A stretch of DNA of 43,728 nucleotides from an uncultured Methanosarcinales archaeon (GCA_964599955.1 CAZRHO010000001.1:296-44023); one strand, 5' to 3'; positions 1 to 15,041 are shown, counted from the first letter of the stretch. Program-made: numbers and translations. Notes: generated from the sequence alone by a model not told the origin.

Positions 1-32
1 AAAATTCAAAGTCTATTTGCAGGTCACTAAAC

Positions 33-506
33 GTGCCCAAAAATAAAACCAAAAAAGTCCAAAAAAACCACGACAATAAAATCTTGGTTATGAATGTTAA
101 TAGGGAGAACGGAAAAACTAAATTGTTTATCAAAGTTTCTCCTGAAATTGAAAACGTATTCAAAACCGAAGATACACACGAATCAAATATATATAAAGAT
201 GGAGATACCAAACATTTTTACTATTTGAGAAAACCCGATACCGAAGAAGAACTTAACAATTTAGTTTCGGACACAAGAATCAGCGACTATGGAAATCAAT
301 TATTTGATGGCTACCGAACTAATTTAAGTTTGTTAAGAACTGTCGGAATTTCGGAAGGTGTAAATTTTGAAATAACCCACTTAATCGGTGAGGAGATGTT
401 AACGAAGTACGCAGAGAGAATGAAAATTTTCGTATTGAAATTGTATAAACAATTTATTCGGAAAGTTGAGATTAATGTCGTACTTGAAAAAGTGGAGGTT
501 TACTAA
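33..506 (+). CDS. hypothetical protein coupled to the downstream amidoligase; 5' end uncertain
   Basis: The track ORF starts at a GTG. The same frame has no stop back to base 3, so the gene may begin upstream of the window or at ATG 90. Its stop overlaps the next start (TAATG at 504-508). Confidence 0.5.
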   Translation: MPKNKTKKVQKNHDNKILVMNVNRENGKTKLFIKVSPEIENVFKTEDTHESNIYKDGDTKHFYYLRKPDTEEELNNLVSDTRISDYGNQLFDGYRTNLSLLRTVGISEGVNFEITHLIGEEMLTKYAERMKIFVLKLYKQFIRKVEINVVLEKVEVY

Positions 507-1195
507 TGAAAATAGGAATTGAGTTGGAAGCAGGTTTTAATCGCTACGACGTGGAAGAAATTGAACAATATTGTGAATCAATAGACGCTCAATTTAAACA
601 CGACGGAAGTATTAGAACCCACGAATCTGAAAATTTGGCTCGGGAAGTTGCAACCCGACCTTACGAATTGAACGAAATGAATCAAATCGCAGAAGATTTT
701 GACGTGATTTATTCATACGTTCAAGAAGTAAATAGTTCAATGGGGATGCACGTACATTTGAGTTTTAACAAACAAGATACATATAATTGTTTGTTTAATC
801 GTAAATTTAATGCCTACTTCAAAAAGGAATTAAAAAAGCGATATAAGGGTAACAACGAACTATTGAGAAGGTTGACAGAAAATAGTTACACTTCAAGTAA
901 ATATGAAATGTCTTATTTCCAACGTAACGACCTTTATGGTGCTTCAAGATACAAATTTATCAATTGGAGAAGTTACTCTAAATTTAAAACTGTTGAATTT
1001 AGAATATTTGATGCACCTAAAACTCAAAAGCAACTTATGGATTATTTAATATTCTTAATATTCACTGTTAAGAAATATGTTTCAACCTATAAGTTCAAAG
1101 TTGAGCTGGATGTGGAAATTGAAGAAAACGAATTACAACCTTTAAATTTGGAAATCACCGAAGAAATTGAAGAAAAATTGGTTGTAACAATTTAA
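506..1195 (+). CDS. amidoligase (Amidoligase_2 / GCS2-like carboxylate-amine ligase family)
   Basis: Ordered motifs GIELEAG (ExE), HDGSI, MGMHVHLS and TVEFRIF fit the amidoligase signature. GGAGG lies about 8 nt upstream. A T8 run follows the stop. Confidence 0.72.
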   Translation: MKIGIELEAGFNRYDVEEIEQYCESIDAQFKHDGSIRTHESENLAREVATRPYELNEMNQIAEDFDVIYSYVQEVNSSMGMHVHLSFNKQDTYNCLFNRKFNAYFKKELKKRYKGNNELLRRLTENSYTSSKYEMSYFQRNDLYGASRYKFINWRSYSKFKTVEFRIFDAPKTQKQLMDYLIFLIFTVKKYVSTYKFKVELDVEIEENELQPLNLEITEEIEEKLVVTI

Positions 1196-1203
1196 TTTTT
1201 TTT
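1196..1203 (+). terminator. oligo-T terminator
   Basis: A T8 run immediately follows the amidoligase stop. Confidence 0.4.
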
Positions 1204-1232
1204 ATTACAATAAACTTGGAGGAAAAATAAAA

Positions 1233-2129
1233 ATGTGTAGAGCAATGTATATAACTAAAACAAAAGCCAAAAATGACAAGAACACTTTTGGGATTGTTAT
1301 GAACTATGTGGTAAATTCATATAATCGTGGCAATAAAGATGGGTTTTATATTAAGTTTGAAAATAACGAAATAAGAACCTTGGACTATCAAAAATTCTTG
1401 GATTTTATCATTGATAACCAGGAACAAATAAATGATAGTAAAGATGTGAATCTCCATTTAAGAATGGCTACCCACGGAAAAGGGGAAGATTGTATTCACG
1501 GATGGAACTTCGGAGATTATGATTGTTATCATAACGGAGTTGTACAAATCAAAAACAAAAAGATACCAAACGATAGTTATGACTTCTTTAAGTCGGTGGA
1601 TAAAGGCAACCTTAAAAAAACTATCAAAGCTATAAAATCCGAACTTAAAACAAGGACTGGTACTGGTGCTTTCTTTATGATTGATAAAAGTAAGAATAAT
1701 AGTTTTATCTTTTCAAAGAACCACACAATAAATGTACACCTAATCAACGACAACATTATTTCTATTAATAGTAATGATGATGTACACAAATTTGAACCTG
1801 AAATTGAACTTGAATCAACTGGTAAAAAGGAAATATGGGGATTAGAATTTGATACCGAAGAATCAGAACTATTTGATTTGGGTTTGTTGATTGAAGAAGA
1901 TTTGGTCGTAAGTTTTGATAATTGTATTTTAATAATTGACCAGAACGGAGTTAAACAAGTAATTGAAATGGATTTTCCCAGTTACAAACACTATAACAGA
2001 TATTGGGATAAATACGACGATGAATGGTATAGCGAAAAGAAAAGGAAAAGCGACTACAAAGAATGGTATGACGAAGGGGGTTATCCAAAACCAAGCAACC
2101 ACCAAATACAAGACTTTTCGGGGTACTAA
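1233..2129 (+). CDS. class-II glutamine-amidotransferase-like Ntn (Cys2) amidohydrolase / thiol peptidase
   Basis: Starts Met-Cys (MCRAMYI). HLRMATHG and CYHNGVV resemble the R-x-AT-x-G and HNG motifs of Ntn GATase-II folds. GGAGG lies about 10 nt upstream. The C-terminal tail is rich in Y/W/D/E/K. Confidence 0.62.
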   Translation: MCRAMYITKTKAKNDKNTFGIVMNYVVNSYNRGNKDGFYIKFENNEIRTLDYQKFLDFIIDNQEQINDSKDVNLHLRMATHGKGEDCIHGWNFGDYDCYHNGVVQIKNKKIPNDSYDFFKSVDKGNLKKTIKAIKSELKTRTGTGAFFMIDKSKNNSFIFSKNHTINVHLINDNIISINSNDDVHKFEPEIELESTGKKEIWGLEFDTEESELFDLGLLIEEDLVVSFDNCILIIDQNGVKQVIEMDFPSYKHYNRYWDKYDDEWYSEKKRKSDYKEWYDEGGYPKPSNHQIQDFSGY

Positions 2130-2130
2130 A

Positions 2131-2358
2131 ATGAGAAGTTGCATACAAAAAGAACTTTGGAATTGGTTTGATGACGAATCAAGAAAGTATCTTCTTGGAC
2201 TTCGTTATAGATGTATATCTACTGTTGAAAAACATTACAAAACACCATATTCGGAATTACCAGGAGGGTTTAGAGATTATCTCAAAGACCTGATTGTGTA
2301 TTTAGCGAAACTTAAAATCTTGGAGGAGATAAAAAATGAACGAAATAAAAAACATTGA
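2131..2358 (+). CDS. hypothetical protein
   Basis: Internal ATG of track ORF 1963..2358. It sits one base after the stop of the upstream gene (TAA-A-ATG); the longer version would overlap that gene by 167 nt. Confidence 0.5.
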   Translation: MRSCIQKELWNWFDDESRKYLLGLRYRCISTVEKHYKTPYSELPGGFRDYLKDLIVYLAKLKILEEIKNERNKKH

Positions 2359-2527
2359 AGTAAAAGATAGACCCAACTCTTTTGAGTGGGGTAAACCATC
2401 ATCCAGGCACAAAGTGTACTATAACACTCTGGAAGATTTGAAACAAAGGATTACGGAAGCAGTAGCTGGAGAAAATCTTTTGAACCAACTTAAAGCAACA
2501 GAAGGAGGTGGTACAAATGAAAAATAA
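2336..2527 (+). CDS. hypothetical protein
   Basis: Track ORF. GGAGGAG lies 7 nt upstream of the ATG. Confidence 0.5.
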   Translation: MNEIKNIEVKDRPNSFEWGKPSSRHKVYYNTLEDLKQRITEAVAGENLLNQLKATEGGGTNEK

Positions 2528-2651
2528 AAAAGGAATGTTACTTTGTGCTAACTTCGTAATGGTTGGAATAAAAAACAATGATTATGATTGTGCGAGGTCC
2601 TACCTTGAACAACTTAATGATTTGTTTGCACAAATTCCAGAGAGGTGGTAA
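2517..2651 (+). CDS. small hypothetical protein (44 aa)
   Basis: Read from the sequence (below the track cutoff): MKNKKGMLLCANFVMVG...IPERW. A strong GGAGGTG lies 6 nt upstream. Confidence 0.4.
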   Translation: MKNKKGMLLCANFVMVGIKNNDYDCARSYLEQLNDLFAQIPERW

Positions 2652-2653
2652 GA

Positions 2654-2755
2654 ATGAAATATTGTAATAAGTGTGGGTTTCAATACCCAAAGGAAATATT
2701 TTCAGAACCACAAGTTCATATTTGTGTAAGTAAGGGGGAAGCAGAAAATGACTGA
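2654..2755 (+). CDS. small zinc-ribbon-like protein (33 aa)
   Basis: Read from the sequence: MKYCNKCGFQYPKE...HICVS (CxxC plus HxC). GAGGTGG lies upstream. Confidence 0.4.
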   Translation: MKYCNKCGFQYPKEIFSEPQVHICVSKGEAEND

Positions 2756-3044
2756 ACACACTAAAAAGGAATTTAAGAAAGTTTCTGATTTAGTTTTACA
2801 TTTTTTGGAAATTGACGAAAGGTGTAGGAATGATGATAAGTGGCTTACTTACTTGGTAATGCGACAATACACAAACATCTATATTCCTTTTGACGATTTT
2901 AAAAAAATACCAGCTTTTGAAACAATAAAAAGATGTAGAGCTAAAATACAGAACGGGGATAAATTGTTTCTCCCCACAGACCCAAAGGTTTTGAAAAGAA
3001 GACATCACCGACAAAATTACATTAGTAACTGGAGCGTGGAATAA
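2748..3044 (+). CDS. hypothetical protein
   Basis: Track ORF. GGGGGAAG lies upstream. The sequence contains ERCRNDDKWLTY ... ETIKRCRAKIQ, which resembles a recurrent small phage protein type of unknown function. Confidence 0.6.
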   Translation: MTEHTKKEFKKVSDLVLHFLEIDERCRNDDKWLTYLVMRQYTNIYIPFDDFKKIPAFETIKRCRAKIQNGDKLFLPTDPKVLKRRHHRQNYISNWSVE

Positions 3045-3045
3045 A

Positions 3046-3210
3046 ATGGGAAAACAACAACGAATAACAAATATGGATTTTAATAAGTGGGTTGAAGTAA
3101 TGAAGGGATTTTGGTTTGTAAACCACAACTTGACTTATATTCAATTTTGTGAATGTATCAAAGGGTACAAAGAAAAAGAATTTGCAGATTATATGGAGGA
3201 AATAAAATGA
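3046..3210 (+). CDS. small hypothetical protein (54 aa)
   Basis: Read from the sequence: MGKQQRITNMDFNKW... TAA-A-ATG junction with the upstream gene and ATGA overlap with the downstream gene. Confidence 0.45.
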   Translation: MGKQQRITNMDFNKWVEVMKGFWFVNHNLTYIQFCECIKGYKEKEFADYMEEIK

Positions 3211-3449
3211 GAGAGAAATTTAAAGAACTTGAAAAAAGTTTAATGAAAGAAGAAACTTTGACATTACTGAATAAAGACCAGCTTATTAATTTGGTTTTAA
3301 GCCTACAAGATAAGATGGTAGAATTGGGGGAGTTGATAGTAGAACATTTTGAAGACACCCAAGAGTTTAACAAATTCCAAAAAGATTCTATCAACGAACT
3401 ATTTTTATTATTTGAGGGGGAAATTAAAAATGAAAAAAAACGAAATTGA
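3207..3449 (+). CDS. coiled-coil hypothetical protein
   Basis: Internal ATG of track ORF 3153..3449, at an ATGA overlap, with GGAGGAA upstream. The sequence is heptad-like and K/E/L-rich. Confidence 0.55.
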   Translation: MREKFKELEKSLMKEETLTLLNKDQLINLVLSLQDKMVELGELIVEHFEDTQEFNKFQKDSINELFLLFEGEIKNEKKRN

Positions 3450-3600
3450 AGAATTTTTCCAAAAGTACATAGATAAGGATGTTGTTTGGTTTATTGATAA
3501 ATGGTTTGAGAAACACGGAAGCCTAACTAAAGATAATTATGAAATGTTTAAAGAAATGATTTGTTATGTAAGGAGGGATAAAAATGTTACACAAAAATAA
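3430..3600 (+). CDS. hypothetical protein
   Basis: Internal ATG of track ORF 3349..3600, preceded by GAGGGGG. Confidence 0.5.
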   Translation: MKKNEIEEFFQKYIDKDVVWFIDKWFEKHGSLTKDNYEMFKEMICYVRRDKNVTQK

Positions 3601-3730
3601 AACTTATATTGAGGAACTAACTAAAAAAGTCATTAGCCCGAATATAAACCCACGATTAAAATCATCTACTGGTGAACAGAAACATTTAAATAGTTCAGAA
3701 ATTATCATAATTAAAATGGAGGATGAGTAA
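3584..3730 (+). CDS. small hypothetical protein (48 aa)
   Basis: Read from the sequence. AGGAGGG lies 5 nt upstream of the ATG. Confidence 0.4.
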   Translation: MLHKNKTYIEELTKKVISPNINPRLKSSTGEQKHLNSSEIIIIKMEDE

Positions 3731-3926
3731 AATGGGATTTATAGATTTGTTGAAAAGGAAAAAAGTTCCTACAAAGAAGTCTGTAATTTTTTATCAAAAA
3801 CAAAGAGCAAAAGGGAAATGCGCTTATTGTAATGAAACTACTGATAAGTATGCTTGTGATAAACATAGAGATTACAGAAATAATTACTACAAACAAAAAA
3901 GGAAAAATGGAGGGATTGAAAAATGA
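3723..3926 (+). CDS. basic Cys-containing small protein
   Basis: Track ORF. An alternative ATG at 3732 has better GGAGG spacing. Contains CAYCNETTDKYACDKH. Confidence 0.5.
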   Translation: MSKMGFIDLLKRKKVPTKKSVIFYQKQRAKGKCAYCNETTDKYACDKHRDYRNNYYKQKRKNGGIEK

Positions 3927-4180
3927 ATGAAGAACTAAATAGATGTGAATCCTGTGAGGGATTTTGTAAAAAACCATATACAACTTGTTGGACTTGTAAA
4001 CAAAAAACACAAGCAAAACAAAACGAAAGTAAAGACCAATGGCGTGAAGGAGTGATTGAAGGCCATATTGATAAATTGACTTTAGACTTTTGTTTGAAGT
4101 TTGCAGATAAACCAAACGACGTATGGGAATCTTGGACGGATGTAAGAAAAAGATTTTCAGAATTAATTAAGGGTAGATAA
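3923..4180 (+). CDS. zinc-binding small protein
   Basis: Track ORF with ATGA overlap. Contains CESCEGFCKKPYTTCWTC (multiple CxxC). Confidence 0.55.
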   Translation: MNEELNRCESCEGFCKKPYTTCWTCKQKTQAKQNESKDQWREGVIEGHIDKLTLDFCLKFADKPNDVWESWTDVRKRFSELIKGR

Positions 4181-4182
4181 AA

Positions 4183-4665
4183 ATGGTAACACTTCCTTTC
4201 GGAGAATTAAAAAGAAGAACTATCAAAGGTAGAAACTTCTGGGTTATAGAAAACTCAACTCTTACAAAAGGATTATTAGAAGATACTCTTGGAATTAAAA
4301 TTAAAAGAAGGAGTGCGTATATCCCAAAACTAAAAAGAAGTACTTGGGTATATCAAGTTTTTCCAGCAAGAGGAGATACAAGACTTAAAAAAACAATAGT
4401 TCCTTTAATTCAACCAGAGGAAGTTTTACCAACCCCTTACAAAAAACCAACAATTACTGATTACAAAATACTTGATAATCTTACAGCACAGGCTTTTGTT
4501 GATAAAGATATGTCATCAATGGAAAGATTAGAACTTGCAAAAGAAATGTTAGAACAAGGTAATATTGAAGAAGCACACGGAATTATGGGAGAAGTAAGAG
4601 AAGAACTTGAAGATGAAAAATTTTATGAATTTGAATTTGAGATTAGAGATGAGTGGAGGACCTGA
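4183..4665 (+). CDS. hypothetical protein
   Basis: Track ORF, 160 aa, with an acidic C-terminus. Confidence 0.6.
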   Translation: MVTLPFGELKRRTIKGRNFWVIENSTLTKGLLEDTLGIKIKRRSAYIPKLKRSTWVYQVFPARGDTRLKKTIVPLIQPEEVLPTPYKKPTITDYKILDNLTAQAFVDKDMSSMERLELAKEMLEQGNIEEAHGIMGEVREELEDEKFYEFEFEIRDEWRT

Positions 4666-4780
4666 ATATGGAAAGAAAAAATATGAATGTGGAAATTGTA
4701 AATTTTTAAACATAATTATTCCATTGAAATGTGTAAAAGCTTATTTCTGTCATTTGTGTAGTGCGAGGTGGGAATTATAA
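4649..4780 (+). CDS. small zinc-ribbon protein (43 aa)
   Basis: Read from the sequence: MSGGPEYGKKKYECGNCKF...FCHLCSARWEL (two CxxC pairs). Its stop forms a TAA-A-ATG junction with the next gene. Confidence 0.4.
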   Translation: MSGGPEYGKKKYECGNCKFLNIIIPLKCVKAYFCHLCSARWEL

Positions 4781-4781
4781 A

Positions 4782-5132
4782 ATGGCTCAAAGAACTTTAT
4801 TAGGAGGAGTAGTACCGAAACCTTACGTTGGTAAAAAAGGAAAATCTAACGTAGGAGATAGTTACATTAACATTCAAGGGAATGGGAAAATTGTTGTTAA
4901 AGCAAAATCAAAAGAAGAAGCTATGCAAAAAGCAAGAGAAATGTTTGAACTTGAATTAAGAAGATGTGACATCTGGGATACCAAAGATAAAATGATGGAA
5001 AGGTGGCGTGGCCTTATGGGTGCAGAACTTAAGAAAACATCATCAACAGGAATAGAAGGGGTTGAGGTCCAAGACCTTAAATGGAAAAATAATCCAAAAC
5101 AAAGTTGGATTAGGAACTCATTACTATGGTAG
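4782..5132 (+). CDS. hypothetical protein
   Basis: Internal ATG (MAQRTLLGG...) of track ORF 4761..5132, at a TAAAATGGC junction. Confidence 0.6.
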   Translation: MAQRTLLGGVVPKPYVGKKGKSNVGDSYINIQGNGKIVVKAKSKEEAMQKAREMFELELRRCDIWDTKDKMMERWRGLMGAELKKTSSTGIEGVEVQDLKWKNNPKQSWIRNSLLW

Positions 5133-5314
5133 AAAAAGAATTGAAAACGGAAAAAGTACCTTTATTGATTATATATAAAGATGGAAGTAATTTAGTAACA
5201 GAGTTTACTGATGATACTAAAGCCTTTGAAATGTTAGGTTACTTGAGATGTTATCTTATCGGATTAGAGGAAGATTTAATTCGGAGTTTTAAAAAGAATA
5301 AGGAGGAAAAATAA
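5126..5314 (+). CDS. hypothetical protein
   Basis: Track ORF. Its start overlaps the upstream stop. Confidence 0.5.
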   Translation: MVEKELKTEKVPLLIIYKDGSNLVTEFTDDTKAFEMLGYLRCYLIGLEEDLIRSFKKNKEEK

Positions 5315-5315
5315 A

Positions 5316-5582
5316 ATGACAGAAAAAACTTGTAAAGTAAGTTGTAGCAAAAGTAAAGCTTGGGCGATTGCTTCAATGGTATGTGGAATTATTGGATTGT
5401 TGTTATGGTTAATGCCTTACTTTGGTATAATCTTATCAGTAATGGCGATTGTGTTTTACTGCAAGGACAAAGAGAGTGCTATGGCGAAAGCTGGTTTAGT
5501 AACTGGTATCATTGGTACAGTTATGAATAGTGCTATGTTATTCTTTTTGTTTATTTGGGTAGCAATTGTTGGTTCTTTATAG
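5316..5582 (+). CDS. small integral membrane protein (about 3 TM)
   Basis: Track ORF with AGGAGG upstream. Three hydrophobic segments (GIIGLLLWLMPYFGIIL..., GLVTGIIGTV..., LFFLFIWVAIV). Followed by a T9 terminator. Confidence 0.65.
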   Translation: MTEKTCKVSCSKSKAWAIASMVCGIIGLLLWLMPYFGIILSVMAIVFYCKDKESAMAKAGLVTGIIGTVMNSAMLFFLFIWVAIVGSL

Positions 5583-5586
5583 AACC

Positions 5587-5600
5587 TTTTTTTTTATTTT
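5587..5600 (+). terminator. oligo-T terminator
   Basis: T9-A-T4 after the stop at 5582. Confidence 0.45.
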
Positions 5601-5603
5601 AAT

Positions 5604-5813
5604 ATGACAATAGACGAAAAAATTGACAAAGGAAAGGTAGCAATAATTTCTGTTATGTGTAGAGCAGAAAACGGAAGTTTGCAACAAGATTATATTTCAA
5701 ATCTAAAACTTTGCACTTACGGAAAAGAACTTAATTGTCCTAATCAATTAATTAATTTCAGAGTCAATCAAGGGTATGAGGTTTATTTTGGATGTAGTTA
5801 CAAAAAAAAATGA
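5604..5813 (+). CDS. small Cys protein, paralog of 8350..8550
   Basis: MTIDEKI...LKLCTYGKELNCPNQ...GCSYKKK aligns with MTVDEII...VDLCKYAGNYNCPYQ...QCLYKK. Confidence 0.55.
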   Translation: MTIDEKIDKGKVAIISVMCRAENGSLQQDYISNLKLCTYGKELNCPNQLINFRVNQGYEVYFGCSYKKK

Positions 5814-6043
5814 AAGAATTAGAACCAATAACCATAGAAATGGTGAATAGACTAAAAGGATTTGAAAGGTCAGAAGCAATAAGGAAATATCACGAATGGT
5901 TGAAACGTGCAAGATATAATGACTTAAGAATCCAAAGGAATTTAGATATGAAAATATTTAAATTTAAAAATCCTGAAAGAGTAAAAAGATGGAAGGAAAA
6001 CAGAATAAAAAGAAGGGAAGAAAAAAAATGGGAACGGAAATAA
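5810..6043 (+). CDS. basic hypothetical protein
   Basis: Track ORF with ATGA overlap. K/R/E-rich. Confidence 0.5.
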   Translation: MKELEPITIEMVNRLKGFERSEAIRKYHEWLKRARYNDLRIQRNLDMKIFKFKNPERVKRWKENRIKRREEKKWERK

Positions 6044-6417
6044 AACTTGATTATGATTGTCCTTTCAGTAGGGTTAGGGAAATTATGCAAGAACGTGGGT
6101 GGTTACTCTTAAAATTAGATTTATTAAATCTCCAAGTTTACAAAACTAAAAGAGGCTACCACGTTTATGCTAATATTAAATCTAAACTTAAACAATTTGA
6201 AATGTTATTAATTCAATCATTGTTAGATAGTGATTTTAATAGGGAAATATTAAATTTCCTTCGTGCGCATAAAAAAGGTAATGCTGGGAACTACCTATTT
6301 GATTTTAAATCATTTTGGACTGATTATAATCTTAAAAGCCATAGGGAAAGAGTAAGAAAACCATTATTAGAAAAACAATTATTAAACATAATGAAAAATA
6401 AAGAGGTGGAAATATGA
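6028..6417 (+). CDS. hypothetical protein with AEP (primase-polymerase)-like motif spacing
   Basis: Internal ATG of track ORF 5989..6417. Contains KLDYDCP (DxD), then KTKRGYHVY about 35 aa later, then LLDSDFN about 22 aa after that. Confidence 0.45.
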   Translation: MGTEIKLDYDCPFSRVREIMQERGWLLLKLDLLNLQVYKTKRGYHVYANIKSKLKQFEMLLIQSLLDSDFNREILNFLRAHKKGNAGNYLFDFKSFWTDYNLKSHRERVRKPLLEKQLLNIMKNKEVEI

Positions 6418-7268
6418 AAACAAAAGGAGAAGAAATTAAAATGGGTAAAGAAATAAGTAATCCTAAAATAATTATTACTGGAGATGGATTTATTCCAGAA
6501 GAAATTACAAAAGCATTAAAGGATGAGTTTGAAGTTTTTAGGATTAATTCAACAACAGAACAAGACGTATGTAACTTTAATCTTAAAATGAAAGGAGTTG
6601 ATATGGTTATCCATTGTTCAGAATTGAGGGATGCACCAGACCCACATATTCTTCAATGGAATGTAATGGGTACAGCAAATATATTAAATTGGTGTGACGA
6701 AAATAAAGTGAGTAACTTTGTTTATATTTCAACTGGAGATATTTATGGAAATAAAACAGTATTCCCTTCAAATGAAACTTTTAAACCAGACCCACTTGGA
6801 ATGTACGCAACTACAAAATATATGGGAGAACTATTAGTTGAATTGTGGCATAAAACAAAAGGAATTAAAACATTAATGTTAAGACCATTTGAAGTATATG
6901 GAGATAATGAAATTCAATCAATTGTAGGTAAAATGAAAATTACACCAAACGAAGGAACGATTGAAGGAAGTCCTGATATTACAAAAGATTTTATGCACGT
7001 AAAAGATTTGGTTAGGGTTGTTAAAATGTATGCGGAAAGAAAAACATTTAACAACCTTACTTTGAATGTAGGAACAAAAAAAGAAACATCATTTGAAGAA
7101 GTTGCGAAAATGTTAGGAAAGGAGTTTTCCTATAAACCAAATAAATCAATACCAAGAAGGAGTATGGCTGATATTGAACATTTGGATTTTACAGGATTAA
7201 AACCGAAGGTGGAACTTGAAAAATGGATAGGTACAACGCAAACGGAAAAGGATACATCTACCAAATGA
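6414..7268 (+). CDS. NAD(P)-dependent epimerase/dehydratase (extended SDR)
   Basis: Contains IIITGDGFIPEE (Rossmann), YISTGDIYG, YATTKYMGE (YxxxK) and RPFEVYG. An alternative start at 6441 has AAGGAG upstream. Confidence 0.7.
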   Translation: MKTKGEEIKMGKEISNPKIIITGDGFIPEEITKALKDEFEVFRINSTTEQDVCNFNLKMKGVDMVIHCSELRDAPDPHILQWNVMGTANILNWCDENKVSNFVYISTGDIYGNKTVFPSNETFKPDPLGMYATTKYMGELLVELWHKTKGIKTLMLRPFEVYGDNEIQSIVGKMKITPNEGTIEGSPDITKDFMHVKDLVRVVKMYAERKTFNNLTLNVGTKKETSFEEVAKMLGKEFSYKPNKSIPRRSMADIEHLDFTGLKPKVELEKWIGTTQTEKDTSTK

Positions 7269-7384
7269 GTTTAGATGAGGTAGCAAGAACAAGAATACCA
7301 AGAACCTACAAGGTATTAAGCAAAAGATGGGTTAGAGGTTTAATCTACTTTGCGTTGGGATACGTTGCAGGAAAAATATGGTAG
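7265..7384 (+). CDS. small hypothetical protein (39 aa) with hydrophobic C-terminus
   Basis: Read from the sequence. ATGA overlap with the SDR gene. Confidence 0.35.
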   Translation: MSLDEVARTRIPRTYKVLSKRWVRGLIYFALGYVAGKIW

Positions 7385-7489
7385 ATTGGGAATAAAAATT
7401 AAAATAAGTGGATATTGGGGAAGGAAAATTTAAAAAAATTCATCCTCCAAGTTGGATTTTCTTTATTCCTTCCCTGACCACAAATTAAA

Positions 7490-7606
7490 ATGAATAGATG
7501 TAAAGGAATAACTAAAACAGGACATAGATGTTTAAGTGGGGCTACATTAGGTAATTATTGCGTAGTCCATTTAAGATTGATTGAAAGTAAAAAGGGGGAT
7601 AAATAA
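7490..7606 (+). CDS. small Cys/His protein (38 aa)
   Basis: Read from the sequence: MNRCKGITKTGHRCLSGATLGNYCVVH. Confidence 0.4.
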   Translation: MNRCKGITKTGHRCLSGATLGNYCVVHLRLIESKKGDK

Positions 7607-7607
7607 A

Positions 7608-7742
7608 ATGACAGCATTTATGGATATACCAAGGAAAAACGGAAAAGTATTATTGAAAGAAAAGATTGTATGTAGGTGTGGGAAAGAATTTTTTACCACC
7701 ACTCACAAAAGATTATGTGATAAATGTGGGAAGAAAAAATGA
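7608..7742 (+). CDS. small zinc-ribbon protein (44 aa)
   Basis: Read from the sequence: ...IVCRCGKEFF...RLCDKCGKKK. GGGGGA lies upstream. First member of the ATGA-coupled chain. Confidence 0.45.
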   Translation: MTAFMDIPRKNGKVLLKEKIVCRCGKEFFTTTHKRLCDKCGKKK

Positions 7743-7987
7743 AACAGGCACAGGAAGAGAAGGAATTATATCAATTCTTAGATGAATATCATAATAAATT
7801 GTTAATGATAACTGATGTAAAAATATTTAGAAAGAGATTACTTAAAATATTTCGTAAACAGAAGAACGCCACGATTGAGGAGATTGAGAAAACTTTAAAA
7901 AAATATAAATCAGATATTTTCAAAGACGATAGAGCACACCTAAATGTTATGAGATATTTAAACCAACTCAAGCGAGGGGAAGAATGA
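7739..7987 (+). CDS. hypothetical protein ending KRGEE
   Basis: Internal ATG of track ORF 7724..7987, at an ATGA overlap. Confidence 0.55.
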   Translation: MKQAQEEKELYQFLDEYHNKLLMITDVKIFRKRLLKIFRKQKNATIEEIEKTLKKYKSDIFKDDRAHLNVMRYLNQLKRGEE

Positions 7988-8112
7988 AAGCAAGATGGAT
8001 TAAGTTAGGTAATTATGGAACTCCAAACCTTTGTTTAGATTATCCAAATTGTGACCACAAATACCATTATGAATTAGTTAACAATAAAAAACTGAAGCGA
8101 GGGGAAGAATGA
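7984..8112 (+). CDS. small protein (42 aa) ending KRGEE
   Basis: Read from the sequence. Bounded by the repeated AAGCGAGGGGAAGAATGA cassette at both ends. Confidence 0.4.
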   Translation: MKARWIKLGNYGTPNLCLDYPNCDHKYHYELVNNKKLKRGEE

Positions 8113-8273
8113 GCATAAAAGCACATTGGAACAGAAGAAGTCCGAATAGTTGGATTGAAATACAAGTTAAATTTAATTGGTTTCAAAAACTTCAAGTTTT
8201 GTTTAAAAGGGAAGTTACTATAAGATTTGAAAATTGTAATATCGTTGATTTGAGAAAGCGAGGGGAAGAATGA
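8109..8273 (+). CDS. small protein (54 aa) ending KRGEE
   Basis: Read from the sequence, 55 codons without an internal stop. Bounded by the same cassette. Confidence 0.4.
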   Translation: MSIKAHWNRRSPNSWIEIQVKFNWFQKLQVLFKREVTIRFENCNIVDLRKRGEE

Positions 8274-8353
8274 ACCTTAAATTTTGTATTTGGTGTATTA
8301 AAATGAAACCACACTTTTTTGGAAAGTGTTTAGGATGTGGGAAAGGAAAATGA
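8270..8353 (+). CDS. tiny zinc-ribbon peptide (27 aa)
   Basis: MNLKFCIWCIKMKPHFFGKCLGCGKGK. ATGA overlaps on both sides. Confidence 0.35.
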   Translation: MNLKFCIWCIKMKPHFFGKCLGCGKGK

Positions 8354-8550
8354 CAGTAGATGAAATAATTAATAATGAACCAGAAGAATGTGAAGGAGAT
8401 TCAGTTAAATGGATTTCATCAGTTGATTTATGTAAATATGCAGGGAATTATAATTGTCCTTATCAAAATCCAAGAATGTTGGTTTACACAATGAAAGACG
8501 AAAGTAGGTTTCAATGTCTTTACAAAAAGATTGAAAAGAAAACAAAATGA
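8350..8550 (+). CDS. small Cys protein, paralog of 5604..5813
   Basis: Internal ATG (MTVDEII...) of track ORF 8326..8550, at an ATGA overlap. Confidence 0.55.
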   Translation: MTVDEIINNEPEECEGDSVKWISSVDLCKYAGNYNCPYQNPRMLVYTMKDESRFQCLYKKIEKKTK

Positions 8551-8651
8551 ATGAAATAATTAAACATTTTGAAGCAAGGATTAATTACCTAATGCAAAAA
8601 GTAACTATCCTGGAAAAGAAGGTGGCAAAAATTGAAGGTAAAAAGGATTAA
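8547..8651 (+). CDS. tiny coiled-coil peptide (34 aa)
   Basis: Read from the sequence, with ATGA overlap. Last link of the chain. Confidence 0.3.
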   Translation: MNEIIKHFEARINYLMQKVTILEKKVAKIEGKKD

Positions 8652-8939
8652 GTGTAAATGTGGAGTTAGGTATTGTGTGATTGTAGTAGGCAAAAGAAAA
8701 ATAAAAAGACATAGGTGTGGTAGATATGACAATAAGTTACAACGAACAAAGGAAATGTAGGAAATTAGGGGAATTTTTCAAAATTGAGGATGAGGATGTG
8801 GAAGATTCTAATAATAACGAATAATTTGATTGAATACTACTGACAAGAGTACTGCTTCCAGTAAGGAACATCAATAACAAAACATTCAAATTCCATATAT
8901 AGGTAGGGTATGCTAATTTAACCAACAAATTTAAATAAA

Positions 8940-9089
8940 ATGTTTAATACAAACACTTCAATGGTAGATTTGGTTTGTCCAAAATGCGAGAACGGAATTG
9001 ATTTAGAACCAGAAGAACTAAATAAAGTTTGGATTGAATGTCATTGGTGTAAATACAAATTTAAAAGAAATAGGGGTTATATTCATTAA
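8940..9089 (+). CDS. small zinc-ribbon protein (49 aa)
   Basis: Read from the sequence: ...LVCPKCENG...IECHWCKYKF. Confidence 0.45.
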   Translation: MFNTNTSMVDLVCPKCENGIDLEPEELNKVWIECHWCKYKFKRNRGYIH

Positions 9090-9209
9090 TTGAAATAGCA
9101 ACATTTAAATAGATTTGAAGTTTCCACTATTTTATCAAAATAAAAAAATAAAAAAAAGTAACCCAAAATTTAGCGTTTCGGGTTTGATTTTATGTACTAA
9201 AAACAACCA

Positions 9210-9695
9210 ATGATAAAGATAAATGTAGTGCCACAAGTATATAAATCTTTCGGAAGATTTAGCCCAATTCTATCACATCTTTCTTTTATAAATAAATCGT
9301 CATTAAATCATATTCAATCCGTTAATTCGGAAAATTCTTTAACTTGCTTCGTGTTGAGGCGAAACAATCAACTGAATGGGTGTTTTAACGTCTGCGTAAA
9401 TCCTAAATGGTGTTCAGACCTCTTTAAACATAGTCGGTCTATTGGGTTATTGAATTATTTGAACAAAAACCAAGCAATGAAATTGTGGAGAAAATTTTGT
9501 CAAAGAAGTACAAATTGGAAACTAACCATTTCCTTTTGGGTTGATTACCTTCTGAAAATACATAGGGGCTTCAATTTGGCAAAATTGACAAAGCAAGGGA
9601 GTGGTAACGAAAACAACCATAGTTTAGTTGTGATGGCTCTAAACTTACAGCGTTTTTTTGTTTGTAAACCTGTCTATGAACTTTTCCGTGTTTAG
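9210..9695 (+). CDS. atypical hypothetical protein (alternative: structured RNA region)
   Basis: A 161-aa ORF is unlikely by chance in AT-rich DNA. However, its composition (N/L/S/F/C/W-rich, poor in K/E) differs from all neighbours. There is no SD. A TATA-like box lies at about 9105 and a T8 run follows the stop. Confidence 0.35.
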   Translation: MIKINVVPQVYKSFGRFSPILSHLSFINKSSLNHIQSVNSENSLTCFVLRRNNQLNGCFNVCVNPKWCSDLFKHSRSIGLLNYLNKNQAMKLWRKFCQRSTNWKLTISFWVDYLLKIHRGFNLAKLTKQGSGNENNHSLVVMALNLQRFFVCKPVYELFRV

Positions 9696-9696
9696 A

Positions 9697-9704
9697 TTTT
9701 TTTT
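9697..9704 (+). terminator. oligo-T terminator
   Basis: A T8 run lies 1 nt after the stop at 9695. Confidence 0.4.
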
Positions 9705-9804
9705 AAACCTGAATGAATTGGGAGATGGCTTTTGATAGGTGGCATTGTAAAATATAGGGAGAAAAAAAAGGGGTTGTTAAGGGGATTTAAAAAAAGGTGA
9801 TATA

Positions 9805-10026
9805 ATGAAATCGGAAAAATTTGTAATGATAATGAAAAAAACAAGGATTAAGTTTAGTAAGAAATTAACTAATCAAGAAAAAAATTTGTTATTTAGATAT
9901 GATAAAGCTTTGATTGAAAATATTTCAAAGGTAGAAAGGATTGAAACAGAAGAAGAAAAACGATTGTCAAGAGCAATAAAAATTGTAAGGGCGTTTAAAT
10001 TAAATAATCCCTTACGGAGATTATAA
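9805..10026 (+). CDS. hypothetical protein
   Basis: Track ORF with AGGTGA upstream. Confidence 0.5.
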   Translation: MKSEKFVMIMKKTRIKFSKKLTNQEKNLLFRYDKALIENISKVERIETEEEKRLSRAIKIVRAFKLNNPLRRL

Positions 10027-10027
10027 A

Positions 10028-10630
10028 ATGATAGACCCAACAAATTTATTAATAGATAAGAAGGAAAACATATTTTATTACTTTGCGAAGGAAACTCCAA
10101 TTTGTAATAGTTGTAAGAATGAATGTTTTGATACATTAATCCTACATCAAACGTGGGATAGGAAAAGGGGAAACCATAAAGAACACACCTATTGTATTAA
10201 TTGTATGGATAAAATCAGAAAATATGGGGAAGACGAACTTAAAACGTGCGTAATAACATATACAATGATGGAACATTTAGATTTGATTATTAAACAACCA
10301 GCACAATTAGTTGGAAGTTCTTCAACGTGGGATAGTAATGTAATATACAAAGGAGAAGGAGAAATAGTTGATAATACAAAGTATGCTGGAAGGATTGATA
10401 CTAATGCAACTCAAAAAATTGAACATAACAAAAAACTTCTTGAACAAAGGGATAAAGAATTAGGGGATAACGCTTATGGGTTTATTGCAAAGGAACAAGA
10501 AAAAGTTTTGAAAGGAATACCAAGAACACCATACAAAGACGAATTAGATATTGATTCATTCTTTGACAACATTAAAAATTCAGTTCCAGCGATTGAACAA
10601 AAAGAAAAAAAGTTGTTAGAAAACAAATAA
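10028..10630 (+). CDS. Cys-cluster (zinc-binding) hypothetical protein
   Basis: Track ORF with a TAA-A-ATG junction. Contains CNSCKNEC...HTYCINC. Confidence 0.6.
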   Translation: MIDPTNLLIDKKENIFYYFAKETPICNSCKNECFDTLILHQTWDRKRGNHKEHTYCINCMDKIRKYGEDELKTCVITYTMMEHLDLIIKQPAQLVGSSSTWDSNVIYKGEGEIVDNTKYAGRIDTNATQKIEHNKKLLEQRDKELGDNAYGFIAKEQEKVLKGIPRTPYKDELDIDSFFDNIKNSVPAIEQKEKKLLENK

Positions 10631-10647
10631 AGCATATAAGTAAATCC

Positions 10648-10663
10648 CAAAACCTTTATATAG
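10648..10663 (+). promoter_or_regulatory. TATA-like box upstream of 10749
   Basis: CAAAACCTTTATATAG has the same AAAAC-TTTATATA core as the conserved promoters. Confidence 0.35.
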
Positions 10664-10748
10664 TTTCTAACATTCCCATAATGTAAAATGGGGATAACAA
10701 CTTATATTTATTTGATTTACTATATGTTTTTTCCCATCATCATATAAA

Positions 10749-11198
10749 ATGGCTGAATGTGAATTATGTGAAAAAGGGAAAGGGGAAAAGAAAAACCAAC
10801 CTATTTTTTTCATATTAGATGATGAACAAATTGTTTGTTTCTGGAACAGCCACACAAAACCACCTTACGATAATTTTGAAGTTATGCAAAATTTACTTCT
10901 TTCGGAAGCCAAAAAGAAATGGGAAAGTTACGACTTTGTCAAAGATACCAAAAGGTATGGCGACCATTACAGCTTAATCATTAGAAAAAATATCCTTGAA
11001 GTTGAAAATAAATTAGATAATACTTTTTGTCCTTTAATCAATAAAAAATGTGAAGGTAAGAAATGTTTATACCACGATGTTACAACAATTAGAGTAGATA
11101 ATGTTTATACCGAAGTTTATGATTGTTTGAAAAGGATGAAAATATTGGAAGAAATTGACAAAAGGAATGATTTTCCTGGTATAAATCCATCAGAGTAG
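10749..11198 (+). CDS. Cys-containing hypothetical protein
   Basis: Track ORF. MAECELCEKG... A TATA-like box lies about 90 nt upstream. Confidence 0.6.
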   Translation: MAECELCEKGKGEKKNQPIFFILDDEQIVCFWNSHTKPPYDNFEVMQNLLLSEAKKKWESYDFVKDTKRYGDHYSLIIRKNILEVENKLDNTFCPLINKKCEGKKCLYHDVTTIRVDNVYTEVYDCLKRMKILEEIDKRNDFPGINPSE

Positions 11199-11255
11199 AT
11201 GTAAAATAGGGGTTTTTCATTCCTCTACCCTCACTGATACTCAAAGGAGTACACA

Positions 11256-11471
11256 ATGTTGAGATTAAGCAAAAAGATACAATACGAATTAAATAGGCTG
11301 AAAAAAGTCAAGACGGAAGACGTTGAATTTAGAGTGAAGGCTTTGGTTTGGATTCTTGATGATGTTGAAGAATTAGAAAGTGAATATGAAGAAAAATCAT
11401 TTGAACTTAAAAAATTAAGAAGAGAATATGAAGAAATACAATGTGGGTTAATGTTATATCCAAATGATTAA
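11256..11471 (+). CDS. coiled-coil hypothetical protein
   Basis: Track ORF with AAGGAG upstream. Confidence 0.55.
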   Translation: MLRLSKKIQYELNRLKKVKTEDVEFRVKALVWILDDVEELESEYEEKSFELKKLRREYEEIQCGLMLYPND

Positions 11472-11649
11472 AACAAGAAAATGTCAATTATGTGGAAAAA
11501 GAATTTCTAAAAAGTTTTTAATATGTCCTAAAGGTTGCTCCGTAACTATAAAAAAAATATCAGTTACAAATTACCCATATAATCCAACAACAAAGATATT
11601 AAAAGATGTTGAAAAATCCATTCATAAAATAGGAAGATTTAAATATTAA
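11464..11649 (+). CDS. small zinc-binding protein
   Basis: Track ORF. Contains CQLCGKRISKKFLICPKGC. Confidence 0.5.
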   Translation: MIKTRKCQLCGKRISKKFLICPKGCSVTIKKISVTNYPYNPTTKILKDVEKSIHKIGRFKY

Positions 11650-11667
11650 GAAATCACTAATTTTTCT
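11636..11667 (+). promoter_or_regulatory. conserved TATA-box leaderless promoter (copy 1)
   Basis: gaTTTAAATATTAAGAAATCACTAATTTTTCT directly abuts ATG 11668. Confidence 0.55.
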
Positions 11668-12273
11668 ATGGTATGTCACAACAAAACTTGTGGAGGAGAG
11701 ATTTACCCACAAAACAACGATGTAAATGTTGAATTAGGGTTATCTGGAAACGGACAATGTCCACTTCTTGGATTTGGTTATCTTGTTAGCACTAATGTTA
11801 ATGAGGAAATGGGGTTATCAGGAACGATTGATTGTCATTACGCTTCCGTGGAAGGCACAGAGCCTTCCCCTCTACCCCAAACAGATGACGAAAAAAATTA
11901 TATCCATAAAGAAATGGATTTGATTGACTTCTTAAAAGTTTTAGGTGTATCAAAAGAAAAGGCAGATAAATATTATTCATTTATGAGAAAGTTTTGGTTT
12001 GAAAATGCTTTGGTTGAACCACTATTTTATTGTGTAGAAGTAATTGATAAAGATGAAAACATTATTGGAGTATTCTATGAAGATGCTTGGCGAAGAAACA
12101 GAGTTTACCTTGGGGATGTGATTTTTAGCTTTGGAGAATCAGGAAGATTATTTTATTTAACTCACGAAATTGTCCATTATATGGATTTTCACGGAAATGG
12201 AAAAGTTACACTTTCTGAAAACGAAACAGATACAAAAGCAAGAGATATTCTAACTATTGGGGGATTATGGTAA
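11668..12273 (+). CDS. putative zinc metallopeptidase (HExxH)
   Basis: FYLTHEIVHYMDFHG contains HEIVH plus a downstream His. The N-terminus has CHNKTCGG. Driven by the conserved leaderless promoter. Confidence 0.5.
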   Translation: MVCHNKTCGGEIYPQNNDVNVELGLSGNGQCPLLGFGYLVSTNVNEEMGLSGTIDCHYASVEGTEPSPLPQTDDEKNYIHKEMDLIDFLKVLGVSKEKADKYYSFMRKFWFENALVEPLFYCVEVIDKDENIIGVFYEDAWRRNRVYLGDVIFSFGESGRLFYLTHEIVHYMDFHGNGKVTLSENETDTKARDILTIGGLW

Positions 12274-12274
12274 A

Positions 12275-12520
12275 ATGGCTAAATTGAAATGTTGGAAGAA
12301 AGTTGGAAATCTTAATCCACCTTCGTGGACTAATAATAGAGGGATAGATATTGATGTAGAATATGACCCCAGTAATAAAGAATGGGATGTTACAATTTTT
12401 CAATTCGGACATAATCGTAATATAATCAAAAAGAAAAATACATATAGTTTTAAAACGAAATCAAAAGCTATAAAATCAGCAAAAACATTTATGAAAAAAA
12501 ATAATAGGTGCAAGATATAA
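12275..12520 (+). CDS. small basic protein, paralog family A (MAKLKCW...RCKI)
   Basis: Internal ATG of track ORF 12257..12520, at a TAAAATGGC junction. Both termini are shared with 13649..13909 and 13909..14154. Confidence 0.6.
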   Translation: MAKLKCWKKVGNLNPPSWTNNRGIDIDVEYDPSNKEWDVTIFQFGHNRNIIKKKNTYSFKTKSKAIKSAKTFMKKNNRCKI

Positions 12521-12524
12521 TGGC
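12506..12524 (+). repeat. 19-nt exact repeat AGGTGCAAGATATAATGGC (second copy at 13895-13913)
   Basis: Both copies span the family-A C-terminus (RCKI-stop) and the overlapping ATG of the next gene. Confidence 0.8.
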
Positions 12525-12771
12525 TAAAACAATAAAACACGTTGGAGAAATAAGTTGCAGACCATCAGGTAAATTTTTTAGTTGTAATTTAATCACAGAT
12601 ACAAGTAATTATGTTGAAAAGGTTGAAAGTGTATATACAGATGTAGAACAACATTTTGCGATTGGTTTTGATGGAGATAGTGCTTATGTTGAAACTATGC
12701 TTGATGACAACACTTGTGAAATAAAGAAAGGAAATAAAGGAAAAACAATAGATTGTGAGGGTGGATATTGA
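12520..12771 (+). CDS. small four-Cys protein, paralog family B
   Basis: TAATG overlap. C-x8-C ... C-x12-C spacing, as in 13381..13647. Confidence 0.6.
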   Translation: MAKTIKHVGEISCRPSGKFFSCNLITDTSNYVEKVESVYTDVEQHFAIGFDGDSAYVETMLDDNTCEIKKGNKGKTIDCEGGY

Positions 12772-12772
12772 T

Positions 12773-12943
12773 ATGGTTTACAAATTATCATCTATAAAAA
12801 GTAAATGTGTAATCAAAGATATGGCTACAATTCAACAATTATATTTGGAAATGGTTAGGAAAGGAAAAACATCATTAACTAAAAATGGGATTACAGTCAA
12901 AAGGCATAAAATTGATGCATCTTGCTTAATTAAGGACTGGTAA
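12773..12943 (+). CDS. small hypothetical protein
   Basis: Internal ATG of track ORF 12755..12943, one base after the upstream stop. Confidence 0.45.
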   Translation: MVYKLSSIKSKCVIKDMATIQQLYLEMVRKGKTSLTKNGITVKRHKIDASCLIKDW

Positions 12944-12946
12944 AAA

Positions 12947-13111: not shown

Positions 13112-13127
13112 TAAAGGTTACGAAAAA

Positions 13128-13379: not shown

Positions 13380-13380
13380 A

Positions 13381-13647: not shown

Positions 13648-13648
13648 A

Positions 13649-14154: not shown

Positions 14155-14155
14155 A

Positions 14156-14557: not shown

Positions 14558-14558
14558 A

Positions 14559-14804: not shown

Positions 14805-14805
14805 A

Positions 14806-14949: not shown

Positions 14950-14950
14950 A

Positions 14951-15040: not shown

Positions 15041-15041
15041 A

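Follow-up and report, generated by a model that had tools for sequence, protein, structure and literature searches.

The stretch of DNA analysed here, referred to as the window, comprises 43,728 bases (G+C about 31%) recorded under an uncultured Methanosarcinales archaeon (GCA_964599955.1; CAZRHO010000001.1:296-44023), and its 5' end carries three closely spaced open reading frames (ORFs), designated A, B and C, that are the subject of this report. The ORFs of the window lie nearly all on the plus strand, and a scan of the window found no tRNA genes. The three opening ORFs are present at the coordinates given in a preliminary description of the sequence. ORF A (33-506, plus strand) starts with GTG, encodes 157 amino acids (aa) and occupies the slot directly upstream of the amidoligase gene. 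ORF B (506-1195, plus strand) encodes 229 aa and belongs to the Amidoligase_2 family of predicted glutamine-synthetase-like, ATP-dependent carboxylate-amine ligases. At the junction of the two genes (494-508, plus strand), a GGAGG at 494-498 is located 7 nt 5' of the ORF B start, and the stop codon of ORF A (TAA, 504-506) overlaps the start codon of ORF B (ATG, 506-508) by one base; direct reading of the sequence confirms the TAATG coupling noted previously. ORF C follows a second Shine-Dalgarno-like GGAGG (1218-1222, plus strand), located 10 nt 5' of its start codon. Its residues 1-249 (1233-1979, plus strand) form a predicted class-II glutamine amidotransferase (GATase)-like amidohydrolase domain of the N-terminal nucleophile (Ntn) type, with Cys2 as the predicted nucleophile after removal of Met1, and residues 250-298 plus the stop codon (1980-2129, plus strand) form a tail that is rich in Y, D, K and W and predicted to be disordered. 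In simple sequence scans no plus-strand terminator was found within A-B-C, and promoter-like and terminator counts showed no excess over chance. Judged from these signals, the layout fits a single transcription unit.

ORF B matched the Pfam family Amidoligase_2 (PF12224) with an E-value (E) of 4.3e-10 and a score of 40.3 bits, above the gathering cut-off of 22, in agreement with the family assignment made in the preliminary description. Two PHROGs, both named 'amidoligase enzyme' (2443 and 7469), also matched ORF B (E 4.9e-8 and 6e-5, respectively), while the YbdK carboxylate-amine ligase family gave a weak, sub-threshold match. The four motifs previously read from ORF B occur in order as E6-L-E8, D33-G-S35, H82-V-H84 and E164-F-R166. 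ORF B was aligned with nine homologues (19-42% identity) from related loci, defined here as contigs encoding relatives of ORF C or ORF A. Residues G4, E6, E8, D33, E47, N76, G80, H82, H84, Y128, N153, E164 and R166 are invariant across this alignment, and S35 is retained in at least 90% of the aligned homologues. Because these residues are invariant among homologues, the ExE/DGS/HVH/EFR motifs constitute a conserved family core, and ORF B carries in full the ExE ... DGS ... HxH ... ExR set expected for metal and ATP binding. A sequence profile search of the PDB detected no solved relative. With its motif set complete, ORF B is identified at the sequence level as a predicted glutamine-synthetase-like, ATP-dependent carboxylate-amine ligase.

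When ORF C was searched alone, no Pfam family was matched at E up to 1, and searches of PHROGs, NCBIfam and PADLOC were also empty. A word-indexed search of 5.8 billion proteins returned only three relatives, all of which start with MCRA once the start codon is corrected, and the resulting 3-sequence profile had no match in the PDB. Only an exhaustive HMMER search with the 3-sequence profile yielded a useful family; this search produced 199 relatives at E<=1e-3, including 80 at E<=1e-10. In an 81-sequence alignment of the family, N34, G37, H75, R77, G102 and D114 are invariant, and M1, C2, H89, H100, N101 and S115 are retained in at least 90% of the relatives. ORF C itself begins M-C-R-A and contains H75-L-R77-M-A-T-H-G82, H89-G-W and H100-N-G102. 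The Met-Cys start and the R-x-AT-x-G-like and HNG motifs on which the preliminary description relied are thus present and, being conserved across 81 relatives, can be regarded as family-defining rather than products of chance. KNH and NSNDD are extra invariant blocks within the close subgroup to which ORF C belongs.

Direct matches to Pfam GATase_6 (best 7.3e-9) or GATase_4 were reached by 8 of the 81 relatives. Searched against the PDB, the family profile matched 3mdn (5.5e-6), 1te5 (6.1e-6), the glutaminase domain of GlmS (2.4e-5) and PurF (1.2e-3), as well as GFAT1, and all of its 18 PDB matches are class-II GATases. The R-x-x-T-x-G, H-x-F/W, HNG and D-S(E) blocks of ORF C align with those of 3mdn and 1te5 in the profile comparison. 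An AlphaFold model of ORF C, built from a 3-sequence alignment, reached a predicted local distance difference test (pLDDT) score of 67 and a predicted template modelling (pTM) score of 0.68. All 50 matches listed in a Foldseek comparison of this model with the PDB are class-II GATases (probability 1.00, E 2e-6 to 7e-5), and they include GlmS, GFAT1, 1te5, EgtC, PurF and AsnS (E about 1e-6 to 1e-5); template modelling scores (TM-scores) against stand-alone domains, normalised to those domains, were 0.49-0.59. The model, which is of moderate confidence, has the predicted four-layer alpha-beta-beta-alpha Ntn fold. The earlier GATase-type assignment of ORF C is therefore upheld through its family profile and its fold and not through a direct Pfam match of the protein itself. 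At the family level, profile and model evidence together identify ORF C as a predicted class-II Ntn amidohydrolase with its nucleophile Cys directly after the initiator Met.

In GlmS, Cys1 is the nucleophile, Arg73 binds the alpha-carboxylate, Asn98-Gly99 forms the oxyanion hole and Asp123 binds the alpha-amino group; we take the equivalents of these residues in ORF C to be C2, R77, N101-G102 and D114, respectively. Since the binders of the alpha-amino and alpha-carboxylate groups are conserved in ORF C, its substrate should end in a gamma-linked glutamyl or glutamine unit, with the gamma-amide as the bond that is cleaved.

The choice of start codon has a direct bearing on this assignment. A public gene call for the identical element (P0001, 294 aa) takes Met5 of ORF C as the start, so that the Cys is left out. 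We place the start at 1233 because MCRA or MC is kept in all homologues and the Shine-Dalgarno spacing fits. Public gene calls for ORF C homologues often begin at an internal Met and lack Met-Cys or more, as recorded at L004 (1177-2061), L018 (11210-12028) and L019 (11560-12288); the call in L018 is late by 15 codons and that in L019 begins inside the R-x-x-T-x-G block. The ORF C homologues of the neighbourhoods considered below all begin with MC once the start codon is properly chosen, so that internal-Met starts in public gene calls hide the catalytic nucleophile from annotation.

The tail of ORF C, described previously as Y/W/D/E-rich, had been put forward as one of two candidate partners of the enzyme pair. 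It is predicted to be disordered (pLDDT 25-33 over residues 250-298), and the 53 residues from 246 to 298 contain 9 Y, 7 D, 7 K and 3 W. Aromatic/acidic tails of this kind were found only in close relatives, while other members have zinc-ribbon-like or plain tails. The tail is thus not conserved across the family and is unlikely to be a universal acceptor. No fusion of the GATase to an amidoligase or synthase was found among the 81 relatives, in which the only additional Pfam domains are of zinc-finger type. The other candidate partner, the upstream ORF A, has held up better, as it recurs with B and C in unrelated contigs.

ORF A has no Pfam, NCBIfam or PADLOC match, its sole PHROG match (phrog_29480) is non-significant (E 0.018), and a sequence search of the PDB returned nothing. 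A profile search recovered 21 homologues, which define a family with eight invariant residues (R24, E40, F43, Y63, G87, N97, R102 and V104) and a common N-x-S-x-LRTVGIS-x-G motif. Across the 22 sequences the C-terminal residue is variable (Y, C, I, M, V, S, L and others). The confident AlphaFold (AF2) model of ORF A (mean pLDDT 82.7, pTM 0.75) begins with 13 disordered, often Lys-rich residues, continues with beta-hairpins and ends in a long helix. Structural comparison of the model produced no significant neighbour, the best E-values being 0.57 for the PDB and 0.12 for BFVD. We also considered, and dropped, a reading of ORF A as a split-off N-terminal (beta-grasp) domain from a glutamine-synthetase-like enzyme, as neither a glutamine synthetase nor another enzyme was significant in its PDB fold matches.

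Gene neighbourhoods of the related loci revealed a recurring order, in which a small ORF is followed by an amidoligase gene and then by a gene for an MC-initiated GATase-like protein. The small ORF belongs to the ORF A family in L001, L002/L003, L007, L018, L019 and L022, while in L011, L012, L013 and L015 the same slot is occupied by a different small ORF (141-252 aa). A homologue of ORF C adjoins the amidoligase gene in the window and in ten loci (L001, L002, L007, L011, L012, L013, L015, L016, L018 and L022); in L019, the amidoligase gene is followed by a truncated call in which the R-x-x-T-x-G and HNG blocks are still present. Members of the ORF A family adjoin an amidoligase gene in 7 of 8 distinct loci, with L022 repeating the arrangement of L002/L018. 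A deviation was observed in L016, where the ORF A homologue is divergently transcribed beside amidoligase and GATase_4 genes. Each of the two families found in the first slot pairs with its own amidoligase subgroup. Spacing within the triad is tight: the gap between A and B lies within -14 and +9 nt in all but one of 8 related loci, that between B and C ranges from -8 to +7 nt in most loci, and in most loci the triad genes overlap or sit 1-2 nt apart.

When 12 loci were compared all against all by BLAST, the window had no genes in common with any other locus except A, B and C. Based on six loci, the pairwise identities of A, B and C co-vary (r 0.87-0.94), and ORF A remains adjacent at 28-60% identity. 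Close relatives are scarce: none were found in IMG/VR or, using the ORF A profile, among GTDB species genomes, and only four short metagenome loci turned up. Among GenBank phages, no relatives of the window or the triad were detected by megablast (query bases 1-20000) or tblastn, the tblastn searches with B and C returning nothing from 50,697 phage records. Taken together, conserved order, exclusive sharing and parallel divergence demonstrate a conserved triad of A, B and C that is inherited as a module; ORF A is the member of a new family, folded according to its model, that is co-inherited with B and C.

The pairing of an amidoligase with a GATase was reportedly predicted by Iyer et al. in 2009. 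The preliminary description stated that the pairing had been predicted before and that its substrate has not been established, and in both respects it agrees with the literature. The pair has been annotated, with a hypothetical function, in the LUZ24-like phage tf (PMC3517423), in OM43 phages (PMC10580990) and in an archaeal virus, the Poseidoniales virus Vyasavirus (PMC11706807). In RIO-1-like podoviruses it lies within a seven-gene 'peptidoglycan modification cassette', which is also cited for phiEco32, 7-11, PA11, LUZ24, PaP3 and CW02 and is hypothesised to modify the peptide side chains of peptidoglycan (PMC5498523, where Hardies et al. 2013 is given as the source of the peptide/peptidoglycan modification prediction). 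The amidoligase of the PSA-HP1/RIO-1 cassette is accompanied by an AIG2/GGACT gamma-glutamyl cyclotransferase (PMC5498523), and pairs of amidoligase and gamma-glutamyl cyclotransferase occur in Clostridium (C. clostridioforme) prophages (PMC11318856). Lee et al. described amidoligase and glutamine-amidotransferase genes near thymidine-hypermodification clusters in viral contigs (PMC8989533). In phiEco32, the gene phi32_85 (205 aa, function unknown) overlaps phi32_84 (Amidoligase_2), which is followed by phi32_83 (676 aa, N-terminal GATase_6); the order of small ORF, amidoligase and GATase is therefore not unique to the window. The phiEco32 cassette also encodes a COOH-NH2 ligase of type 2 (PF14395), an ATP-grasp ligase and a GGACT cyclotransferase (phi32_77, E 2.8e-17).

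The explanation that we prefer, tentatively and with slightly less than even confidence, is that a mobile A-B-C operon forms a gamma-glutamyl amide and later removes it. Ligase/hydrolase pairs of this kind are established in cellular pathways: in EgtA/EgtC (mycobacterial ergothioneine biosynthesis), PuuA/PuuD (utilisation of putrescine) and the gamma-glutamylanilide synthase/hydrolase pair (aniline degradation), a glutamine-synthetase-like ligase installs a gamma-glutamyl group and a GATase-type Cys hydrolase removes it. By analogy, A, B and C would constitute one self-contained, horizontally mobile operon, in which ORF B would form an acyl-phosphate at the gamma-carboxylate of glutamate and join the activated group to an acceptor amine, and ORF C would later hydrolyse the gamma-glutamyl amide and release glutamate. 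The glutamyl group could then serve as a transient handle or reversible mark, as in the three cellular pairs. ORF A may be the acceptor, a specificity subunit that binds the acceptor, or a component acting between ligation and removal. The module would represent an accessory gene set within the block of small ORFs at the 5' end of the window, and its target would most likely be a host or viral protein or a component of the envelope. Besides the precedent of the cellular pairs, hydrolysis is preferred because the partner slot of the amidoligase is elsewhere filled or accompanied by a cyclotransferase, which can only remove gamma-glutamyl groups and provides no ammonia, and because the closest solved relatives of ORF C (3mdn and 1te5) are stand-alone proteins and EgtC is among its fold matches.

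Several observations weigh against this explanation. A ligase and a hydrolase acting on the same bond would run a futile cycle unless something separates them. Delivery of ammonia is the canonical task of class-II GATases, and the conserved residues of ORF C would fit free glutamine equally well. ORF C lacks a direct Pfam match and its model is only moderate (pLDDT 67 from a 3-sequence alignment), and ORF A shows neither a conserved C-terminal residue nor a conserved lysine tract, features that would point to a role as tag or acceptor. In L017, the 11.7 kb retrieved hold a homologue of ORF A but neither B nor C. Homology between the two families found in the slot of ORF A is not claimed: hhalign gave an E-value of 0.0015 and a probability of 16.6% with a 3-sequence profile, and an E-value of 0.081 with a 22-sequence profile. 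Furthermore, no biochemical evidence for any Amidoligase_2/GATase-II pair was found in the literature. A more specific version of the ligation and removal model, which we regard as distinctly unlikely in this form, is that the triad provides reversible protein glutamylation in minimal form, as a virus-encoded set of writer, eraser and adaptor that is spreading among bacterial and archaeal viruses. ORF B would then attach the gamma-carboxylate of glutamate to a lysine or N-terminal amine, ORF C would remove it, and ORF A, with its new fold, would be the target or the adaptor by which a host or viral target is selected. If true, this would represent a previously uncharacterised post-translational modification system encoded in a three-gene cassette.

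The strongest competing explanation, although we judge it less likely to be correct than not by a clear measure, is that B and C are the two subunits of a glutamine-dependent amidotransferase. ORF C would in this case hand ammonia to ORF B for the conversion of an ATP-activated carboxylate to a carboxamide; by analogy with MurT/GatD or asparagine synthetase, the carboxylate could reside on an envelope peptide, a protein or a metabolite, and ORF A might act as a substrate-binding or scaffold subunit. The complete class-II glutaminase residue set of ORF C would suit such a role, and its fold matches are mostly true amidotransferases (GlmS, GFAT1, PurF and AsnS). The narrow spacing of B and C in most loci (-8 to +7 nt) fits a stoichiometric complex, the order of amidoligase and GATase is kept in phiEco32 (phi32_84 and phi32_83), and modification of peptidoglycan peptide side chains is the hypothesis published for the cassette (PMC5498523). 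However, classical class-II amidotransferases are fusions, and none of the 81 relatives of ORF C is fused to an amidoligase. The best profile matches of ORF C (3mdn and 1te5) are likewise stand-alone rather than synthase-fused, and the gamma-glutamyl cyclotransferase that fills or accompanies the partner slot in other phages would be unable to supply ammonia.

Two further explanations concern the target of the triad and its composition. It is quite improbable, in our estimation, that B and C make up an accessory metabolic pair of the ordinary kind and that ORF A is an unrelated neighbour whose adjacency stems from shared ancestry of the block. The ORF A homologue that lacks B and C in L017, the divergent transcription in L016, the absence of detectable homology between the two slot-A families and the lack of a known domain in ORF A would all be expected of a bystander. 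Yet ORF A is the only extra gene kept with B and C across genomes that otherwise share nothing, its adjacency persists at 28-60% identity with divergence in step with that of B and C, and it is translationally coupled to B in most loci; moreover, in the second subgroup and in phiEco32 (phi32_85) the amidoligase also has a gene of similar size in front of it. We consider it very improbable that the target of the triad is viral DNA or a nucleotide precursor, with a glutamyl-type or carboxyl-bearing side chain being added to, or amidated on, a hypermodified base so as to evade restriction. The association with thymidine-hypermodification clusters reported by Lee et al. (PMC8989533) points in this direction, as do the two DNA methyltransferases of the window and the QueD, QueE and GTP cyclohydrolase I genes located about 7 kb 5' of the triad in L001, whose pathway has a carboxylate intermediate. 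In the window itself, however, no 5-hydroxymethyldeoxyuridine kinase, aGPT-Pplase, dUMP hydroxymethylase, TET/JBP, DpdA or Que gene was recognised; the triad occurs without such genes in L002, L011-L013, L015, L018, L019 and L022, and it is the only thing that these genomes have in common.

The nature of the element that carries the triad is less clear than was initially assumed. The preliminary description called it archaeal-virus-like, a label that we do not retain, as no virus hallmark or host marker was recognised and related triads occur in both bacterial-type (L011) and archaeal-type (L016) neighbourhoods; an archaeal virus is one possible identity for the element. Among the sizeable ORFs of the window, no capsid, portal, terminase, polymerase or integrase was recognised using PHROG, Pfam and NCBIfam, and phmmer searches of the window with the capsid, portal, terminase and PolB proteins of related loci gave no match. 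No terminal repeats were found in the window, PADLOC reported no defence-system match, and a search of GTDB with the UDP-GlcNAc 2-epimerase of the window was empty. Other contigs bearing the triad do have genes of head-tail viruses: L018 and L022 carry portal and HK97-type capsid genes, and L019 carries a terminase gene. In L011 the triad lies beside bacterial-type genes such as those for sigma-70 and HU, and in L016 beside an archaeal Orc1/Cdc6 gene. The region 8350-14545 of L016 (an 85-kb contig) has an archaeal-type context that includes Orc1/Cdc6-type, metallophosphoesterase and DDE transposase genes and a faint transglutaminase-core match. L001 encodes QueD (PTPS), QueE (radical SAM) and GTP cyclohydrolase I (FolE) at 87-1959 and 3295-5649, which suggests 7-deazaguanine DNA modification, and also a family-B DNA polymerase and an ERCC4 nuclease. 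Record names point to groundwater-type metagenomes as the source of the samples.

Elsewhere in the window there is a large nucleotide-sugar/glycosylation cluster at 29969-37222, with a further gene at 6414-7268. It contains glycosyltransferases (29969-31123 and 35582-37222, the latter fused to a methyltransferase domain), a UDP-GlcNAc 2-epimerase (31488-32516; PF02350, E 6e-77) and NAD-dependent epimerases/dehydratases (32953-33921 and 6414-7268); matches to Glycos_transf_2, RmlD_sub_bind and FdtA/WxcM-like families were also found among smaller ORFs of the window. The two DNA methyltransferases are encoded at 25005-25760 (minus strand) and 38705-39730 (plus strand), one being a D12-class N6-adenine enzyme (PF02086, E 8e-21) and the other a match to phrog_67 (E 2e-70). 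A nucleotidyltransferase at 26050-27105 matches NTP_transf_2 (E 3e-7) and, below threshold, tRNA_NucTransf2 (E 1e-3); the latter is the second domain of archaeal-type CCA-adding enzymes and provides the only archaeal hint in the window, a weak one. A small two-helix membrane protein of DUF4190 type (E 3.7e-9) was also recognised and is probably encoded at 5316-5582, as placed by sequence inspection. A DUF4190 gene lies downstream of the triad in L002 (7616-7864), and BLAST found no link between it and the DUF4190 ORF of the window.

Two further ORFs of the window contain repeats. A 642-aa protein (39772-41700) has an N-terminal membrane anchor and a 24-aa unit of the form GCTDPxAxNFNPxATKDDGSC that is repeated in tandem about six times and corresponds to a tandem DNA repeat at 40051-40331 (72-nt unit, 3.9 copies); several Cys-rich modules of the form C..NG.W....C.YGC.N..C come after these repeats. 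From its sequence it looks like a disulfide-rich surface protein; it had no family match, and a PDB search was empty. A similar CTDPNDC motif is present in one reading frame of the last 200 bases of the window, and a PKD-domain protein was also recognised in the window. An ORF of 529 aa at 17352-18941 (minus strand) has low-complexity stretches rich in Q, E and M and contains a short tandem repeat (18788-18837); it had no significant family match, and PDB and IMG/VR searches were empty.

The Amidoligase_2/GATase-II pair is among the more widespread uncharacterised phage enzyme pairs, with reports covering phiEco32-like and LUZ24-like phages, phages of OM43, mycobacteriophages and Poseidoniales viruses, and the functions proposed for it since 2009 (superinfection exclusion, cell-wall modification and secondary metabolites) are speculative. 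ORF A adds a third conserved component that is absent from the earlier descriptions of the pair found in the literature. The amidohydrolase branch to which ORF C belongs, with about 200 representative sequences, is invisible to Pfam and is sometimes stripped of its Cys by gene callers, so that Pfam-based surveys undercount the system. As three small coupled proteins that move as a unit, the triad offers a tractable entry point for biochemistry.

Several known systems can be compared with the triad. Pupylation (PafA, Dop and Pup) likewise relies on a glutamine-synthetase-like ligase together with a partner that cleaves amides and a small protein encoded next to them, in line with the plausible scheme of ligating and trimming a tag put forward in the preliminary description, but Dop is a paralogue of PafA and not an Ntn hydrolase, and Pup is a disordered tag of 60-70 aa with a C-terminal GGQ or GGE, whereas ORF A is predicted to be a folded protein of 157 aa with a variable C-terminus. 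ORF A thus does not resemble a Pup-like tag (pLDDT 82.7, no conserved C-terminal Gln/Glu). The EgtA/EgtC-type comparison rests partly on the presence of EgtC (4zfj, 4zfk and 4zfl) among the fold matches listed for ORF C (E about 1e-5, probability 1.00). However, these pathways are cellular, act on small molecules and have known enzymes between their steps, no homologue of which is found here; PuuD is a class-I GATase while ORF C is of class II, and ORF B (229 aa) is far smaller than EgtA or PuuA. We therefore use the comparison as a working analogy and claim no membership. ORF C also resembles stand-alone proteins of the YafJ/EgtC type (GATase_4/GATase_6; 3mdn and 1te5), which are single-domain Ntn proteins with the Cys directly after Met1, share the N-x-DG, R-x-x-T-x-G, H-x-(F/W), HNG and D-S blocks and provide its best profile matches; ORF C differs in lacking a direct Pfam GATase match and in possessing the KNH/NSNDD blocks and the aromatic/acidic disordered tail.

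Lastly, the triad can be set beside the cassettes of the phiEco32/LUZ24/RIO-1 type, in which an Amidoligase_2 gene likewise lies directly upstream of a gene for a GATase-II protein with the catalytic Cys at its start. In phiEco32, the likeness extends to the small, overlapping upstream gene and to a location among genes of the early/replication region. The phiEco32 GATase is a protein of 676 aa, and the cassette includes a second COOH-NH2 ligase, an ATP-grasp ligase and GGACT. A Pfam scan of the window ORFs detected none of these, and the window has only the three-gene core. Sequence similarity between the two is remote, as the triad amidoligase profile matches phi32_84 with an E-value of 1.5e-5 and the ORF C and ORF A profiles match nothing there. 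The triad is a divergent, minimal form of this known phage enzyme pair, to which it adds a third conserved gene, ORF A, and a Pfam-invisible branch of the amidohydrolase.

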